NCBI GenBank assembly: GCA_964469295.1
Contig: CAYXYJ010000006.1
Span: 4,682-68,681, forward strand
DNA: 64,000 nt
Direction: 5' to 3'
Source: an uncultured Candidatus Saccharibacteria bacterium
Lineage (GTDB): Bacteria; Patescibacteriota; Minisyncoccia; Phycocordibacterales; UBA918
Under the pieces are notes generated by a model. It ran no database searches, was not told the origin of the DNA, and was given only the letters and a program-made list of their open reading frames with translations. The position numbers were made by a program, and so were the translations under genes. Position 1 is the stretch's first letter. Each line of letters begins with the position of its first letter. Below, one piece after another: positions 4,908-62,921 of this stretch.

Positions 4908-6536
4908 ATGTCTAACCATCTATTTTATAGTTCCGTCATTAGTTTTTTGATTGGAGTAATGATTGGATCATTGTACAACATTGCACTGTTCATTCCGTAC
5001 ATATTTTTAATCGGAGCATTTCTCGGGGCTCTTATCTGGCGCTCACTTCCATCAAGTGAAATAGTTTTTACAAAATTGCTTTTACTATCAATTACCGTTG
5101 TGTGCGGATTGTCAGTAGGAATGTGGCGCTATGCTATCGTAGCCGATCAATTACAAGAGACTGTTTTGAATAATGTCACCAATCAAACCGTTACCATTAT
5201 CGGGACGGTAATCAGAGAGCCAGACCGACGATTAGCGTCATCTCTCGTGACTGTAGAAACTTCTGATACACGGGTACTGGTACGAACTGACCGTAACGCA
5301 AGGGTGGCCTATGGTGATGTGATAGAAGTGACGGGGAAACTGGAAACACCAGAAGATTTTATTACTGAGTATAATCGCATCTTTCCCTATGAGGGATATT
5401 TATTGGCTCGTGGAGTGACTCATACGATGTCATTTGTGGATTTGGTTATCATTGAAAATGGATCGCCGTTTACCATACCGCGGTTTTTGAGTACGTTTAA
5501 GACGTATTTTTTATCACGGTTATCACTTGTATTGCCGGAACCGGCGTATGGACTTGGTGTCGGTATGTTGCTTGGAATCAATGGCTCATTAGGAGAACAT
5601 TTAGACAAAGTATTTCGTACGACTGGCCTTAGTCATATTGTCGTATTGTCTGGATACAACATCATGTTGGTGGTGGCGTTTACTTTATTTGTATTGGGAT
5701 TCGTCTTGCCGTGGCGGTGGCGATTGTGGCTGGCTGGGGTGATGGTAATTGTGTTTGTCGTGATGGTGGGGTATTCGCCAAGTGTCGTGCGTGCTGCGAT
5801 TATGGCGATTATATTTTTATTACTGACAAGTATTGGTCGTCCGTATGATGTGGTGCGAGCACTCGTTATTGCTGCGGGAGTGATGGTGTTTATGAACCCG
5901 TATATTTTGCGGTACGACATTGGTTTCCAATTATCTTGTATGGCGACACTGGGGCTGCTGATGATTACGCCACAACTGGAAATAGCGTTTACCAAATTAT
6001 CAGTGTGGTTATCTGTTCGTACGTTTCTGGCGTCGACGGTGGCGGCGCAGGTCGCCGTGCTTCCACTCGTGCTGTACCATATCGGACAATGGTCGCTTGT
6101 GGCGTTGCCCGCTAACGTTTTAGTGGTGCCGCTGGTTCCGTTGGCGATGCTTGGGACTATGGTGACTGGTGTGGTGTCGCTTCTGTCCGTATCACTGGCG
6201 ATACCGTTGGCGATGATTACCACACTGATTTTGAATACTATGATTATGATTGCCTCATGGCTAGCGTCGTGGCCATTTGCCGCAGTGATAGTGCCGTCAT
6301 TTCCGGCAGTATTGTTGATTCTCATGTATGGCGGTTTGGGATACTTATGGTATTGGTGGCAACAACAATCAACGCAAATAATCAATCACTCCTCAGATAA
6401 TGATATACATGGCTGGACAGTAGAAACTGAAGTCATGGTGCAGTCACGACAGTTGTTGGTAAAGAATGCCACCACCACGTCAATTGACGTGGTGGTGGCA
6501 GAATCAGATTCACCCGAACCAATATTTTTTCGGTAA
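4908..6536 (+). CDS. comEC: ComEC/Rec2 DNA-internalisation channel, N-terminal part (DUF4131 + competence domain), lacking the MBL domain
   Basis: 542-aa polytopic membrane protein; VVLSGYNIMLV ... GYSPSVVRAAIMA ... motifs characteristic of the ComEC competence domain. Confidence 0.8.
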   Translation: MSNHLFYSSVISFLIGVMIGSLYNIALFIPYIFLIGAFLGALIWRSLPSSEIVFTKLLLLSITVVCGLSVGMWRYAIVADQLQETVLNNVTNQTVTIIGTVIREPDRRLASSLVTVETSDTRVLVRTDRNARVAYGDVIEVTGKLETPEDFITEYNRIFPYEGYLLARGVTHTMSFVDLVIIENGSPFTIPRFLSTFKTYFLSRLSLVLPEPAYGLGVGMLLGINGSLGEHLDKVFRTTGLSHIVVLSGYNIMLVVAFTLFVLGFVLPWRWRLWLAGVMVIVFVVMVGYSPSVVRAAIMAIIFLLLTSIGRPYDVVRALVIAAGVMVFMNPYILRYDIGFQLSCMATLGLLMITPQLEIAFTKLSVWLSVRTFLASTVAAQVAVLPLVLYHIGQWSLVALPANVLVVPLVPLAMLGTMVTGVVSLLSVSLAIPLAMITTLILNTMIMIASWLASWPFAAVIVPSFPAVLLILMYGGLGYLWYWWQQQSTQIINHSSDNDIHGWTVETEVMVQSRQLLVKNATTTSIDVVVAESDSPEPIFFR

Positions 6537-22152: not shown

Positions 22153-22172
22153 TTCATAGCATCAACGAAAAC

Positions 22173-22201
22173 AAAAATCCGCTATTGCGGATTTTTGTTT
22201 T
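22173..22201 (+). terminator. intrinsic terminator after fusA
   Basis: aaaaatccgc tatt gcggattttt + gtttt. Confidence 0.7.
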
Positions 22202-22274
22202 CCGTAGGAATGAAAATATAATTTTACACAGCATCGTACCAGAGCACGATTTTCATACCGTATACTATAGGTAC

Positions 22275-23444
22275 ATGTTATCTCGTGCCACATATTTTAC
22301 TGTGCAATTTTTATTTTGGGGTTGGTTGTTTATGGTGATGATGATTCCTAAGGCATCGGCTCAATTTGTTGCCCCGGTTGATTTAGATGGCTACGCCTGG
22401 AGTAGTACGGTTGGGTGGATTTCGTTTAACTGCGCGACGGGTGGTTTGACCGGCAATAATATTTGTGCGACCAGTAATTATAAAGTGAGTATAGACGCCG
22501 ATGGTGACGTCAGTGGCTACGCCTGGAGCAACAATGTCGGATGGATTAAATTTGGTGGACTATCGTCTTTTCCTAGTCAGGGCGGTACGTATGCCGGAAA
22601 TGCGCGAGTTGTGGGTTCGTTTCCAAATTATACCTTTGAAGGTTGGGCCCGTGCCTGTGCTGGCACTGATAATCCGACAGTCTCTGAAGCAAAAAACTGT
22701 TCAGTTATGACTCTTAATGATAACAGTGGAAATTGGGATGGCTGGATATCACTTCGCAAAACTACGGCTACGGCATACAGTGTTCGATTGGATCGAACAA
22801 CCGGTATGGCCAGTAACTCCTATGCTTGGGGGAGTACCGTGGTCGGGTGGATTGATATGTCCTCGGTAACATTTGTACCACTTTCGTCATCGCTCAGTGG
22901 TACTGCTTGCCAAATACCGCTTGCAGGTAGTAGTTGCATTGGCCGTTTAACGTGGACGATTCATTCTTCTGCTCCCAGTCCAAGTATCTATAATGTCCGT
23001 ACCAGCAGTAATGTGAGTACGAATTATAGCGGTACCAATCAAACCGTTACCTTAAACCAAGGTAGTACCGAATTTACCGCCCGAACCGGCACTACCGAAC
23101 TACAAAGTGTTACCTTAACTCCGACGTGTGTGGCGGGCACTAGTTGGAACGGGACGGTTTGTGGGACACCACCACCAGTTATCACGATTACCGCGGATCG
23201 TTCAATGGTACGTAACGGCGGTACAGCGCAATTAACTTGGACCATCAATCGCAATCCGCTCGATGATGGTAGCTGTACGGTAGCAGGACCCGGCATCAGT
23301 CAAACCGGTGTAACAACAAATGGATCACAAACGAGTGCTGCCCTCAGTGGTACCAGCAATTTTGACTTTAGTTGTACGGGTACGTATGGAACGGTATCAG
23401 CTCGGGCGACGGTGGAGGTGGTGCCGGTGGTGACTGAAATCTAA
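22275..23444 (+). CDS. secreted W-rich repeat protein (three YAWSxxVGWIxF repeats) with Cys/Thr/Ser-rich C-terminal region
   Basis: signal-peptide-like start MLSRATYFTVQFLFWGWLFMVMMIPKASA; repeats DGYAWSSTVGWISF, SGYAWSNNVGWIKF, NSYAWGSTVVGWIDM; sits between fusA and tuf. Confidence 0.7.
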   Translation: MLSRATYFTVQFLFWGWLFMVMMIPKASAQFVAPVDLDGYAWSSTVGWISFNCATGGLTGNNICATSNYKVSIDADGDVSGYAWSNNVGWIKFGGLSSFPSQGGTYAGNARVVGSFPNYTFEGWARACAGTDNPTVSEAKNCSVMTLNDNSGNWDGWISLRKTTATAYSVRLDRTTGMASNSYAWGSTVVGWIDMSSVTFVPLSSSLSGTACQIPLAGSSCIGRLTWTIHSSAPSPSIYNVRTSSNVSTNYSGTNQTVTLNQGSTEFTARTGTTELQSVTLTPTCVAGTSWNGTVCGTPPPVITITADRSMVRNGGTAQLTWTINRNPLDDGSCTVAGPGISQTGVTTNGSQTSAALSGTSNFDFSCTGTYGTVSARATVEVVPVVTEI

Positions 23445-23848
23445 TGGTTCTATTTTGTATGAAAAATTCAACAATTCAAAAATTAGTTACATTCGGTCTC
23501 GTTATTGTTTTAAGTGGCATTGTTGGTGGATATATTTATTTGGGGATGCAACAAGCTAAAACAGCGGAAATAACCACTACACCAACTGTAGATGAAACTG
23601 GAATCGTGCCAACAACTGATGCTACGACCAACGAGTTGACGCTTGAAGAAAAAACCAAGATGCTAGAAGCCCTCGCTGATCACACTACTAGTTCTGACCG
23701 TCTGTCACCCGAAGAACGAACAGAAATACTGGAAGCACTCGAATCATCCTCAACCGAACCAGATGCGATACCATTGACAGCTGAAGAAAAATTCAGTCGT
23801 TTGCAAAAATTAAACCAGGACGAAAGCGCGTTAGTGGTTCCAGAATAG
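23444..23848 (+). CDS. small membrane-anchored protein (134 aa), translationally coupled (TAATG) to upstream gene
   Basis: N-terminal TM helix, T/E-rich extracellular tail; start overlaps previous stop. Confidence 0.5.
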   Translation: MVLFCMKNSTIQKLVTFGLVIVLSGIVGGYIYLGMQQAKTAEITTTPTVDETGIVPTTDATTNELTLEEKTKMLEALADHTTSSDRLSPEERTEILEALESSSTEPDAIPLTAEEKFSRLQKLNQDESALVVPE

Positions 23849-23858
23849 GAAATATTAC

Positions 23859-23886
23859 TTGCAAATGTAAAGCAATCTGCTACTAT
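23859..23886 (+). promoter_or_regulatory. putative promoter for tuf-rpsJ (TTGCAA-N16-TACTAT)
   Basis: ttgcaa 23859-23864, tactat 23881-23886; followed by ~180-nt leader containing hairpin gcttttta atac taaaaagc (24010-24029). Confidence 0.45.
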
Positions 23887-24068
23887 GGCGAGACCGCCAC
23901 AGCTTTTGGCTGTTGTCGGAGCGATTATATTTGCTCTTTCACACCGTCTTGGTGTCCATTCGTAGCGCGACATTGTTCTCGCGCCGTTACGATTGAACTA
24001 TCAAGCACCGCTTTTTAATACTAAAAAGCAGCTGTGTGCGGATTATTATTTACGTAACAATCAATTTT

Positions 24069-25647: not shown

Positions 25648-25867
25648 AGTGAGCCAACGAGCCGTGGGCGACTATGGCGAATTTTCTTCACATTTTCTAT
25701 TCCTAATGAAAATGTGAAGGAGCTCGGTATAATAGTGTCTTGCCTAAAGCGACAATGGCAAACTTTCGCGAGTAATTTGTCCACCTAGGCAAGTTATATG
25801 CGTCGTTCTTTCAAACAGAACACAGTGATGCAACAACAAAAACATTAGAGTTTTGGTTGGTCATACA

Positions 25868-25905
25868 ACACAAAAACCATTCCCTAGGGAATGGTTTTTG
25901 TGTTG
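25868..25905 (+). terminator. intrinsic terminator between rpsJ and rplC
   Basis: acacaaaaaccattccc tag ggaatggtttttgtgt perfect palindrome. Confidence 0.7.
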
Positions 25906-25958
25906 ACGCATCTATTATTTTGCAACGCATAAAGAAATCAAGAATATTTTTGAGCTAC

Positions 25959-25986
25959 TTGCAATAGTTGGAAAATCGGGTATAGT
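25959..25986 (+). promoter_or_regulatory. putative promoter for rplC-rplD-rplW-rplB (TTGCAA-N16-TATAGT)
   Basis: ttgcaa 25959-25964, tatagt 25981-25986; a second TTGCAA-N17-AATATT lies ~40 bp upstream. Confidence 0.45.
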
Positions 25987-26155
25987 AGCGGGAGCTTTTA
26001 AAGACCTACGTTCGTAGAAGGTGCCGATACTATAGGTGCTGGAGAACCACTGGGCACAAATCGCGCTTTTATCGATGCGAGCTTGTGCTTGCGCGATAGG
26101 GCGCGATTTGTTGTGGGGTCAATAAAAAGCCATTTTATTCGATAATCCACACTAA

Positions 26156-29221: not shown

Positions 29222-30031
29222 ATGAAACGCACAAAAATGACTATCCCAGTACTACTGATGGTTTTATTTCTCTTAAATAGTTACCAATTCCTTTCAGCTC
29301 AATGGGCACCACCAACGGCGACGGCCCCGGGTAACAACACTCCCGCACCGGTGAATGTGGGCTCGGCAGCCCAAACCAAAGAAGGTGTTCTTGGTTTGGA
29401 TTCCTTAGCGCTATTTTCTGCGAATCCCCGTGTTCAGTATGTTGATGAGACGGCCGGACAACGTGATTGGTGGACGTATTTAGATAACCAGGTATTCAGT
29501 TTTCTAGCGGATAGAAATGAAGACGGTACCTGGTCTGGTGAATCCCCGTATCCACTGCAAATGTTTGCGAGTACTTCGCCATCAGGTGATTGGGCGCGGT
29601 TTGGTGGTCAAGTACGATCAAATACATTTTGTGATTGGTTAGGTAATAATTGTTTTGCAGCAAGTGATGTCGCTGGTATCGTTAATGGTGGCGTGAGTTT
29701 TTATCCCAATGTTGGAGTGGTGCGTGTTGCTGGTTGGAATTCGTTTCCGTCTAATGCGACGACGTGGCCGGGTGGAACCAGTTTCACACCGGCTGGTTTG
29801 CCCAGTGGCAGTTTTGGCTCAGAATATAATGATGTGACGTTTACTAATGCTAGTTATGACGCTTGTTTTATCACTACAAACTATACACATATCCGTGATG
29901 ATGAACAATTTACTGGTGGTGGTGGTTGTGAGCTGACGCAAGTAAATGCCGGTACCGGAGAATGGCGATTGCGTGCTATGGCCGCAAAACGTAGTGTCAC
30001 TGAATGTAAAGCTAGCTGTATGAGTTTGTAA
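29222..30031 (+). CDS. secreted hypothetical protein (269 aa) with Pro/Asn-rich N-terminal motif and Gly/Trp-rich body, inserted between rplB and rpsS
   Basis: MKRTKMTIPVLLMVLFLLNSYQFLSAQW signal peptide, then APPTATAPGNNTPAPVNVGSAAQTKEGVLGL; perfect TATAAT ~10 bp upstream of the ATG. Confidence 0.65.
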   Translation: MKRTKMTIPVLLMVLFLLNSYQFLSAQWAPPTATAPGNNTPAPVNVGSAAQTKEGVLGLDSLALFSANPRVQYVDETAGQRDWWTYLDNQVFSFLADRNEDGTWSGESPYPLQMFASTSPSGDWARFGGQVRSNTFCDWLGNNCFAASDVAGIVNGGVSFYPNVGVVRVAGWNSFPSNATTWPGGTSFTPAGLPSGSFGSEYNDVTFTNASYDACFITTNYTHIRDDEQFTGGGGCELTQVNAGTGEWRLRAMAAKRSVTECKASCMSL

Positions 30032-61236: not shown

Positions 61237-61276
61237 GAAACCGACGCGAGCTACGCTCGCGTCGGTTTCGTTTGTG
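61237..61276 (+). terminator. intrinsic terminator after ftsH
   Basis: gaaaccgacgcgagc tac gctcgcgtcggtttc + gtttgtg. Confidence 0.75.
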
Positions 61277-61303
61277 ATACAATTTTTGCATACGCAAAAT
61301 AAT

Positions 61304-62824
61304 ATGAAAATATCTTTTTTGGTAGCGATTATGATTTGTCTGCCGATGGTGGCGGATGCGCAACTGTTTGATCGCGATTTGCAACCTGGTGATTCGGGAA
61401 TGGCAGTGAGAGAACTGCAAAAAGTATTAAATAAGGACACTGAAACGCAGGTTGCTCTTTCTGGTCCGGGTGTGCCAGGTAGCGAGACTGAATATTTTGG
61501 TCCGGCGACCAAACAGGCGGTGATTCGTTTTCAGGAAAAATATCGAACAGAGATACTTGAGCCAATTAAACTCACAACCGGTACTGGTTATGTGGGCAGA
61601 CTGACACGATTGCTATTAGAACGTTTGGCCGAAGATCTGGGAACGCCAGTATCAACTAGTACTGTGGTAGCACAAAACACCGAAACTACTACAGTACTAT
61701 TTGATGCGATAACTGAACTGAGTCCAGCGCTGACGGAAAAATCATTTACCGTGATCAACGAAATGCCAACTGCCAGTCAGGGTGGACTCGGTTGTGTGAT
61801 CTCATATACAAACCAGTCGAGCAAGAGCACCACCATTACCGGACAGGCGGTGGCGCGTGCGCAGCAAAAGGACGGAAAGTGGACACTGGGTGAATTGTAT
61901 CTCTTTAATAATTTTTGCCAAAAAGGCCAGCTACGAAATCAAAAGGCGGGAGTCGTGTTGCATGTAACTGAAAACGGTAAACAGCAGAAAATGGTTTATC
62001 TTGGTCCTAATCGTATTAATTTGGCTTTTCGATCTGCGGAAATATGGAAATCATATTTCGGTGGCTATTATTTCCGCGACCCGAAGCGTACTGGAGATGC
62101 GCAGATTCCACGTTGGCCGATGATGCTCTTCGGACGACGGTTGGATGAGTATACGACGTTATCGAGCTATAACAAATTGATTCTTTCGCTCGAGGTGACA
62201 CCTCGGGTTGTCAATTCAACACAGAAAAATGTGAAAGGCACTGCTCCGACTGGAGCAGTGACTACCTATAGTGAACGAAATCACGCTGCTCGCTTTCGCA
62301 TGAATTTGCCAGTGCAGTGGCGTTCTTCGGCGTGTGACACGGCCGCAAAACGTTTTGCAGAACCAAAATTATGCGCTCCCTACGGTCGTATTCTATGGAT
62401 TACGCTCCAACTGATGGATGACCGTCCGAATTTAGCTTTTCGTAATGAAGGTGAGACGATTTTTGATGAAGGTTCTGGTGAATATATTATGCAAATTGAT
62501 ATGCGTGAATATATCCAAAACGGCAAAAAATTGACCACCAATCCATTTTTTGATGTTGGTAAAACCACTTCATTACAAGGAGATGTGCTGCCGGCATTAA
62601 AACGCGCGGTCTTGAAAGCAGAAGCCAAAGGTATGGCGGAAGGTGATGAGGCTAAATATATTGCTCCGCGGTTAACCGTGAACGGTCGTAAGGAAACGGA
62701 TGCTGAATATCTGGCACACTTTGGTCTTAATTCAATCAATATCGGCTACGAAACGACTGGTTTGTCCCATTTGAATTACGAGATTTCAAAATATAATCTG
62801 GTTGGGGTGAAAGTGCAACAATAA
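61304..62824 (+). CDS. secreted protein with N-terminal peptidoglycan-binding (PG_binding_1-like) domain and large uncharacterised C-terminal domain
   Basis: signal peptide MKISFLVAIMICLPMVADA; LQPGDSGMAVRELQKVLN...YFGPATKQAVIRFQEKY matches PGBD pattern. Confidence 0.6.
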   Translation: MKISFLVAIMICLPMVADAQLFDRDLQPGDSGMAVRELQKVLNKDTETQVALSGPGVPGSETEYFGPATKQAVIRFQEKYRTEILEPIKLTTGTGYVGRLTRLLLERLAEDLGTPVSTSTVVAQNTETTTVLFDAITELSPALTEKSFTVINEMPTASQGGLGCVISYTNQSSKSTTITGQAVARAQQKDGKWTLGELYLFNNFCQKGQLRNQKAGVVLHVTENGKQQKMVYLGPNRINLAFRSAEIWKSYFGGYYFRDPKRTGDAQIPRWPMMLFGRRLDEYTTLSSYNKLILSLEVTPRVVNSTQKNVKGTAPTGAVTTYSERNHAARFRMNLPVQWRSSACDTAAKRFAEPKLCAPYGRILWITLQLMDDRPNLAFRNEGETIFDEGSGEYIMQIDMREYIQNGKKLTTNPFFDVGKTTSLQGDVLPALKRAVLKAEAKGMAEGDEAKYIAPRLTVNGRKETDAEYLAHFGLNSINIGYETTGLSHLNYEISKYNLVGVKVQQ

Positions 62825-62847
62825 GTAGGAATCTTTCTATAGTCTTG

Positions 62848-62921
62848 TCCGTGTGCCTGGACTCGAACCAGGGGCCACAGAGGTATAAGCTCTGCGCTCT
62901 AACCAACTGAGCTACACACGG
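62848..62921 (-). tRNA. tRNA with anticodon UAU (AUA-reading tRNA-Ile-like), 74 nt, no encoded CCA
   Basis: minus strand: CCGTGTG-TA-GCTC-AGTTGGTTA-GAGC-G-CAGAG-CTTATAC-CTCTG-TGGCC-CCTGG-TTCGAGT-CCAGG-CACACGG-A; perfect 7/4/5/5-bp stems, U33, A37, A73. Confidence 0.75.

Follow-up and report, generated by a model that had tools for sequence, protein, structure and literature searches.

Between fusA and tuf, in the 64,000-nucleotide stretch of contig CAYXYJ010000006.1 analyzed here (the window), lies a gene for a protein that is predicted to be secreted, disulfide bonded and composed of three domains (positions 22275 to 23444, + strand; 389 amino acids [aa]). We regard this protein, hereafter called the target, as a modular bacterial surface protein that combines an undescribed N-terminal domain of Trp-rich hairpins with an undescribed signature at its extreme C terminus. 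It is the minimal member, made up of the two ends and a stalk only, of a large family that is Patescibacteria specific, judging from the best 80 genome matches. Across this family the N-terminal domain (N-domain) and the C-terminal tag are constant and the middle is variable, a contrast from which we infer that the ends are more likely docking or assembly handles than host-recognition surfaces. We tentatively propose, with a confidence somewhat short of even, that the target is a structural or adaptor element of a surface-appendage apparatus (type IV pilus, fibers) and not a host-specific adhesin. No account of the family, the C-terminal tag or the fusA-tuf insertion was found in searches of part of the open-access literature.

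A predicted secreted protein with a Trp-hairpin domain and an Ig-like stalk

A first-pass annotation, made by a model from the letters and their open reading frames (ORFs), had placed a secreted repeat protein at this position. The ORF holds up: database protein P0001 is identical to the target and uses the same start, ATG 22275, and the target N terminus aligns with those of 42 homologues (alignment A1). We took ATG 22275 as the start because an ORF opening with TTG at 22185 would run through a hairpin that follows fusA. The signal peptide is likewise there, by a heuristic call: residues 1 to 29 (22275 to 22361, +) form a predicted Sec-type signal peptide with one Arg (R4), a hydrophobic stretch at residues 7 to 24 and cleavage at ASA↓Q (residues 27 to 30), and in alignment A1 the A-x-A-Q site hardly varies among family members. 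AlphaFold2 (AF2) places a helix at residues 5 to 23, within the signal region. A class III prepilin signal is absent from the target, which has the AxA↓Q Sec-type site instead, and a prepilin-motif regular expression found no match in the window. The mature protein, of about 360 aa (37 kDa, pI 4.9), is rich in Thr, Ser, Gly and Asn. Its ten cysteines can be grouped along the chain as five successive pairs (53-64, 128-142, 212-221, 285-296 and 334-367); in the family alignments six of them are invariant, and C142 is nearly so. Five such pairs are consistent with an oxidizing, extracytoplasmic location.

The AF2 model of the full-length protein, built from a 43-sequence alignment (mean predicted local distance difference test score [pLDDT], 88.2; predicted template modeling score [pTM], 0.64), comprises the signal helix, an all-beta N-domain (residues ~35 to 200) and two beta-sandwich domains (~205 to 299 and 300 to 383). 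Modeled separately, the N-terminal Trp-hairpin domain (residues 30 to 204; 22362 to 22886, +) is all beta with a pLDDT of 87.9 and a pTM of 0.86. It contains eight conserved Trp residues (six invariant, two nearly invariant) and the predicted disulfides 53-64 and 128-142, and its invariant G-W-S...G-W pattern is seen in alignments of both 43 and 65 sequences.

The three Trp-rich units that had been noticed from the letters are present: unit 1 (GYAWSSTVGWISF; 22392 to 22427, +; AF2 strands 35 to 43 and 47 to 50), unit 2 (GYAWSNNVGWIKF; 22518 to 22553, +; AF2 strands 78 to 85 and 89 to 93) and unit 4 (SYAWGSTVVGWIDM; 22821 to 22859, +; from regular expression and profile-profile comparison). To these we add one more, the split and degenerate unit 3 (22641 to 22751, +), which consists of GWARAC (residues 123 to 128) and WDGWIS (154 to 159), with an insert closed by C128-C142; within it G123, C128, G156 and W157 are invariant and W124, W154 and D155 nearly so. 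The units are homologous by profile-profile comparison with HHalign (units 1 and 2, 98.9%, E 2.5e-17; units 1 and 2 with unit 4, ~95%, E ~1e-8), split unit 3 being detected weakly (76%), and each unit is a beta-hairpin in the AF2 model. A regular expression for the unit matched nothing beyond the target in six frames of the 64-kb window. Outside this genome, the Trp unit occurs in the 80 best genome matches, all of them patescibacterial or unclassified (see below). The N-domain has no Pfam or NCBIfam match, no sequence match in PDB, and no fold match by Foldseek against PDB and BFVD.

The region after the repeats had been described as long and Ser/Thr/Cys-rich with paired cysteines. The pairing stands, but the region is not of low complexity: it consists of two well-predicted immunoglobulin (Ig)-like beta-sandwich domains. 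Ig1 (residues 205 to 299; 22887 to 23171, +) has the disulfides 212-221 and 285-296 and a pLDDT mostly above 90, and Ig2 (residues 300 to 383; 23172 to 23423, +) has the disulfide 334-367 and an invariant R313. In PDB, Foldseek matched these domains to PECAM-1, complement C3, Dscam, PTP-delta and the neck of GhpA (E 3e-5 to 1e-4), with probabilities of up to 1.0 for tandem-Ig matches, which places them among Ig-like folds. A sequence-profile search of PDB gave weak Ig/titin matches in the C-terminal half only, and hmmscan found no Pfam family for the target at E ≤ 1, Ig-type families included. Going by the models, Ig-like stalk domains would make up the middle of the target.

A large and modular family in Patescibacteria

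A word-indexed protein search returned 1,367 relatives. The best 120 of these are all 265 to 456 aa long, most of them 360 to 440 aa, and are unnamed or "hypothetical"; the few source names among them are Patescibacteria or Paceibacteria. An exhaustive profile search, counted in 50%-identity representatives, gave 12,812, 6,845 and 1,397 at E ≤ 1e-3, 1e-10 and 1e-30, respectively, the weaker matches including proteins with only Ig-like domains in common. A species-level genome collection contains 560 stretches that code for relatives, and the best 80 of these all come from Patescibacteria or unclassified metagenome-assembled genomes, with Kaiserbacteria closest (50%), followed by Nomura-, Taylor-, Yonath-, Vogel- and Nealsonbacteria, Paceibacterota and Minisyncoccia. 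This distribution bears out the link to ultra-small bacteria that the first-pass annotation had drawn. Some records labeled Saccharibacteria show Kaiserbacteria-type synteny and 93 to 95% EF-Tu identity, and for this reason we do not trust the label of those records.

The N-domain behaves as a module, standing at the head of proteins with additional CARDB, PKD, beta-propeller or DUF2341 domains, and giant proteins contain as many as 21 copies of the Ig2-type domain. The target itself has every feature by which we define the family, namely, a signal peptide, a four-unit Trp-hairpin N-domain, two disulfides and the C-terminal tag. Surface-protein families of monoderms are as a rule designed as one constant wall-binding module plus passenger domains that vary, and the family pattern matches this design. 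The target could accordingly be read as an abundant wall-bound envelope or S-layer-type protein, with Trp hairpins that would attach to peptidoglycan or a secondary wall polymer, an outer layer that would be built by the Ig domains, and a place beside translation genes that would secure constitutive expression. Its acidic, T/S/G/N-rich composition and its conserved location among housekeeping genes agree with this. However, the codon adaptation of the target (0.683, compared with 0.62 to 0.74 for ordinary genes and 0.68 to 0.84 for the ribosomal reference set) lies mostly below the ribosomal set and so gives no sign of very high expression, ten cysteines would be unusual for an S-layer protein, and no SLH, CWB2, LysM or CW_binding match was found in Pfam at E ≤ 1. 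This explanation also leaves the tag and the gene neighborhoods described below unaccounted for, and we consider it rather unlikely.

According to PMC10936435, PMX_810_sub_00465 of "Ca. Yanofskyibacterium" is a highly expressed hypothetical protein of 439 aa that has an Ig-like fold and is predicted to carry a signal peptide; in size and features it resembles the family, of which it may be a member. An mBio paper reports highly expressed Ig-like secreted proteins in Paceibacteria, which are at most candidates for membership.

A C-terminal tag shared by different secreted proteins

The target ends in the tag P-V-V-T-E-I-COOH (23424 to 23441, +), which follows the family consensus P-x-Phi-x-E-Phi. 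In 272 distinct family proteins, Glu occupies position -2 in 93%, Pro position -6 in 82%, and Val, Ile or Phe position -1 in 71%, and family chains stop exactly one residue past the Glu. Glu at -2 was found in 67 of 76 complete family ORFs, compared with 61 of 1,106 (5.5%) other ORFs of at least 90 aa and 0 of 47 ORFs of a neighboring gene family, P1, described below. Within the window, the target is the sole ORF with such an ending.

The tag is present whatever the middle domains, and pilus-linked paralogues with a different C-terminal domain keep the ending ...KKxPxFIEN, while internal copies of the Ig2-like domain in giant proteins are without it. Since internal copies lack the tag and varied C-terminal domains keep it, it is specific to the C terminus and no by-product of the last domain; the candidate explanation that it is an intrinsic end of the Ig2-like domain is ruled out by the same internal copies. 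Neither is the tag confined to one family, because unrelated large secreted proteins share it. Among the loci that we assembled (labeled L001 and so on), large secreted proteins without a Trp-hairpin domain end in it at L041 130-2115 (...PEFREF), L048 2252-4918 (...PGYREF), L049 2695-4896 (...PGYIEI), L050 2412-4811 (...PGFQEQ) and L016 578-2662 (...PEFEEI).

The tag may still have a purely structural role, closing the last domain; there would then be no common assembly mechanism, and the target would be another fast-evolving hypothetical surface protein whose gene came to lie in the fusA-tuf interval. The invariant residues E388 and R313 could form a salt bridge within Ig2; the pLDDT of the tail is moderately high (last block, 84), and the tail may merely pack on Ig2. 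Against this, the internal Ig-like copies have no such motif, whereas paralogues and unrelated secreted proteins with other C-terminal domains keep it and always end one residue after the Glu. We therefore hold this explanation to be very improbable. The tag matches no NCBIfam sorting-signal model and is accompanied by no transmembrane helix, basic tail or folded C-terminal domain (CTD), and we know of no sorting signal of the form P-x-Phi-x-E-Phi-COOH.

Type IV pilus and P1 genes in family neighborhoods

All ORFs of the 84 loci holding family genes were clustered. In at least ten loci (L018, L020, L026, L028, L031, L036, L058, L069, L076 and L081), a paralogue of the target lies immediately upstream of pilB, pilC and three minor pilin genes. 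The assignments rest on T2SSE and MshEN domains for pilB (E 3e-121) and T2SSF for pilC (E 8e-54), the minor pilins being weakly GspH-, PilV- or ComG-like. The L018 paralogue has the N-domain and Ig1 in common with the target (37% identity over 338 aa, E 9e-46).

PilY1-type proteins carry Sec rather than prepilin signals, as the target does, and the paralogues come first in the pilB-pilC-minor-pilin operons and keep the KKxPxFIEN tag despite their different C-terminal domain. One could thus imagine a PilY1-like adaptor at the pilus tip, in which a strand formed by the tag would complete a minor pilin and the N-domain, perhaps with a P1 fiber, would be presented. For the target we find this distinctly improbable: it is not pilus linked and has a membrane partner instead, it has no PilY1 or Neisseria_PilC domain in Pfam, and the tag occurs on many different large secreted proteins, more than a tip is likely to carry.

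P1 genes are present in 37 of the 84 family-gene loci, often adjacent to the family gene and on the same strand, with gaps of 9 to 60 bp in many. Their products consist of a Sec signal peptide, a conserved mature N terminus (consensus W-T-x-P-x-x-x-P-P-x-x-N-V-x-A-P-I-N-V-G-x-x-x-Q-x-K-x-G-x-L) and then variable fiber-like sequence, and some end in phage tail-fiber C-terminal modules (L048:6607-7170, PHROG E 1e-40). By analogy with such fibers, attachment would be through the conserved N terminus. The P1 family is not covered by any Pfam or NCBIfam model. In L018, L028 and L036, the two associations meet, the gene order being P1, family gene, pilB, pilC, pilins. Elsewhere, tandem family genes, some encoding 700 to 1,060 aa, alternate with P1 genes (L017 3159-6619; L022 3633-9082, where the order of family [W] and P1 genes is W-P1-W-P1; and L062 4785-9584), and these alternating duplicates indicate local expansion of W/P1 gene pairs.

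Where the family gene follows fusA, the position of P1 differs: it takes the place of the small gene that follows the target (the partner, below) in the more distant loci (L015, L017 and L021 to L023), and in the more closely related loci it is found farther along the ribosomal cluster. A motif scan and tblastn with at least 40 P1 proteins identified a P1 gene in the window (29222 to 30031, +) in the S10 ribosomal operon, after rplB, with a signal peptide ending ...LSAQ↓W and the mature N terminus WAPPTATAPGNNTPAPVNVGSAAQTKEGVLG. On the strength of the family association, we infer that this gene is linked to the target. The 508-bp gap between rpsJ (S10) and rplC (L3) in the window (25648 to 26155) contains no ORF on the + strand and no P1 remnant by tblastn; this position is occupied by a P1 gene in L001 (9476-10249), L010, L011 and L012. 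The arrangement in L003/L014 (CAKUWT010000002.1, 5372-13227) is reshuffled, running fusA, P1, Trp-hairpin gene, partner-like gene and then rplC-rplD-rplW-rplB, after which come a second P1 paralogue with a weak H_lectin match and tuf-rpsJ.

A probable separate transcription unit with a coupled partner

The first-pass annotation had found it unusual that the gene sits inside the most conserved operon of the genome. Physically this is correct and persistent: in about 20 loci, where EF-G can be as little as 65% identical, full-length orthologues lie directly 3′ of fusA, and in most of these loci tuf is downstream. Transcriptionally it is not, given a terminator, a promoter-like box and a tuf promoter. 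Directly after the fusA stop (22152), a terminator-like 18-bp perfect hairpin with a U-run (22162 to 22205, +) folds as RNA at -25.6 kcal/mol (z = -7.1), and 0 of 200 shuffles were as stable. A TATACT -10-like box (22261 to 22266, +) stands 8 nucleotides (nt) upstream of the ATG, with no Shine-Dalgarno sequence, and the same box occurs 5 to 10 nt before the start in L001, L002 (start 5974), L005, L006, L008, L012 and L013. As far as sequence can tell, this suggests an own promoter and a leaderless or near-leaderless mRNA in these Kaiserbacteria-like genomes.

Downstream, tuf has its own conserved promoter (TTGCAA, 23859 to 23864; N16; extended -10 TGcTACTAT, 23878 to 23886) and a conserved, structured leader of about 180 nt that holds the invariant GCTCTTTCACAC (window 23858 to 24068). 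Promoter and leader are conserved upstream of tuf in L001 to L003, L005 to L013, L015 and L017, and several relatives have a second hairpin terminator before the tuf promoter. The leader has a minimum free energy of -70 kcal/mol (z -4.7), and RNAalifold on 15 loci gave 30 pairs, of which 13 show compensatory double changes; Rfam yielded no match even at E ≤ 10. We consider it a candidate for a new cis-regulatory leader RNA of tuf in Paceibacteria. A simple promoter and terminator scan missed the fusA hairpin and the tuf promoter, which were found by folding and comparative alignment. Taken together, the fusA terminator, the own TATACT box and the separate tuf promoter indicate that the target and its partner constitute a transcription unit of their own that is inserted here. 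Not all genomes have this insertion: in "Ca. Yanofskyibacterium" PMX_810_sub, fusA (00186) directly precedes tuf (00187) (PMC10936435). A prophage origin of the target was considered and is ruled out by the conserved chromosomal position together with the lack of PHROG matches: PHROGs gave none for the target, the partner or the window P1 protein.

The small membrane-anchored partner that the first-pass annotation had reported as coupled by TAATG is indeed there: the target stop TAA (23442 to 23444) overlaps the ATG (23444) of a 134-aa ORF (23444 to 23848, +) with one N-terminal transmembrane helix and an acidic tail (net charge -15, pI 4.2) carrying three L(T/S)xEExxxxLxxL repeats. Homologues with 30 to 39% identity occupy the same position in L001, L005, L009, L010, L011, L013 and L019, ORF clustering adds L006, L007, L008 and L012, and a similar transmembrane-acidic protein follows the family gene in L003. 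No Pfam or NCBIfam family reaches its curated cutoff for the partner. Searches of the big databases with the partner and with the window P1 protein returned essentially self matches only, because both diverge too fast for the word index.

Proposed role of the target and its family

We infer the binding partners and the anchoring role of the target as follows. A promoter of its own would drive the gene, as part of a unit that is inserted between fusA and tuf. The Trp-hairpin domain of the protein would recognize a conserved ligand in the envelope, which could be the wall glycopolymer of the cell itself or the Pro-rich mature N terminus of P1; Trp-rich grooves that bind Pro-rich peptides are an established principle. 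At the other end, the tag would hold the protein on a receptor carried by the membrane or the pilus, possibly the acidic partner. In a more elaborate form of this proposal, which we regard as doubtful in its entirety though worth stating, the Trp-hairpin domain and the tag would be the two ends of an unrecognized paceibacterial surface-assembly system. The tag would then be a new kind of signal for sorting or docking, dependent on a free carboxyl terminus, that fixes proteins to a membrane anchor (e.g., the acidic partner) or to the pilus, and the Trp-hairpin domain would be a socket for the Pro-rich P1 N termini, displaying phage-like fibers on the cell or the pilus.

The first-pass annotation had suggested a part in the cell-surface or host-attachment apparatus. 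The surface half of that suggestion is supported by the signal peptide, the disulfides, the Ig domains and the pilus and fiber neighbors; host attachment is not supported, as the constant N-domain points to docking. As a host-attachment adhesin, the target would use the Trp-hairpin domain as a lectin-like head for host glycans, raised on an Ig stalk and anchored at the C terminus. Conserved Trp residues in hairpin repeats typify carbohydrate-binding surfaces such as carbohydrate-binding modules (CBMs) and choline and CROP repeats, and the eight conserved Trp residues of the target's repeated hairpins would, by analogy, fit such a surface. Ig-like stalks are common in adhesins, the domain order puts the N-domain farthest from the conserved tag, and relatives neighbor genes of the type IV pilus, which mediates host attachment in Saccharibacteria (PMC12206443). 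Yet the N-domain is the least variable part across lineages and architectures, whereas host-recognition modules usually vary; it matches no lectin or CBM family by sequence or fold; and the orthologue is kept beside housekeeping genes, not in variable regions. A constant N-domain with a variable middle favors anchoring or docking over host-specific binding, and we judge a host adhesin unlikely.

Several observations weigh against the structural or adaptor role that we prefer. The target itself is not beside pilus genes, its orthologues sitting after fusA. The partner evolves fast and is missing in L002 and therefore cannot be an obligatory receptor. The codon usage of the target carries no signature of the very high expression expected for a major structural protein. 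Finally, the well-predicted tail and the possible E388-R313 salt bridge would also suit a tag that only packs on Ig2.

A large part of bacterial diversity consists of Patescibacteria, which live in attachment to other cells, and to our knowledge their surface machinery is almost unknown outside Saccharibacteria. The family described here is large (1,397 clusters), unnamed in the databases searched, and built on a confidently predicted domain without a solved structural relative. Its constant ends, its tie to type IV pili and its tie to tail-fiber-like proteins are handles on how Paceibacteria build their surface or contact apparatus. If the tag is a sorting signal, it would represent a new class and would allow genome-wide prediction of the surface proteome.

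Other features of the window

The window also encodes a ComEC-type competence channel (4908 to 6536, +; Competence and DUF4131 domains) and a 516-aa protein (61274 to 62824, +) with a weak PG_binding_1 match (22.9 bits, against a 23-bit cutoff), both typical envelope and uptake genes of Patescibacteria. A tRNA-Ile gene with the anticodon UAU (TAT) lies at 62847 to 62921 on the - strand; most bacteria read AUA with a lysidine-modified CAU tRNA, and a UAU anticodon is uncommon.

Comparison with known systems

The N-domain of the target resembles CW_binding_1 repeats, the CROPs of clostridial toxins and the GW modules of Listeria in having short tandem aromatic-rich beta-hairpin units, and the family resembles them in joining a constant module to variable passengers in secreted proteins of wall-bearing bacteria. 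It differs in that the target units are 13 to 14 residues long, separated by long irregular linkers, accompanied by two disulfides, and only four per domain, one of them split. Moreover, the target shows no sequence match to the ~20-residue aromatic repeat profile of CW_binding_1 (Pfam, E ≤ 1), and its N-domain has no Foldseek match to the solved beta-hairpin solenoids of choline-binding proteins and CROPs. Nor is it the Listeria-Bacteroides repeat TIGR02543, against which the target scores 12 bits (E 0.2) over 19 residues, with a cutoff of 20.95 bits. Like Big, CARDB, PKD and fn3 stalks and the neck of GhpA, residues 205 to 383 form two beta-sandwich domains; unlike the Big, CARDB, PKD and fn3 stalks, they have no Pfam Ig-type match at E ≤ 1, and each is predicted to be disulfide bonded.

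Tapirins of Caldicellulosiruptor are nonpilin proteins associated with type IV pili. The target has in common with them, and with the tip adhesins PilY1 and PilC, that it is a Sec-exported nonpilin whose paralogues are encoded beside pilB, pilC and minor pilin genes, but it has neither the PilY1 beta-propeller nor a tapirin-like fold and has Ig-like domains instead. Its tag recalls LPXTG/sortase, PEP-CTERM/exosortase, GlyGly-CTERM, MYXO-CTERM and the CTD of the type IX secretion system in being a short signature at the extreme C terminus of many different secreted proteins in one lineage. Unlike signals of the LPXTG and PEP-CTERM type, however, the target ends in ...VVPVVTEI-COOH with nothing after Glu-Ile. 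P1 proteins, in turn, are like phage tail fibers in their conserved N-terminal module, their variable distal parts and, in some, their tail-fiber C-terminal modules; unlike phage tail fibers, they carry Sec signals and sit at conserved chromosomal sites, including the ribosomal cluster. Extending this likeness, we hypothesize that the Trp-hairpin domain could act as the socket for P1 fibers.

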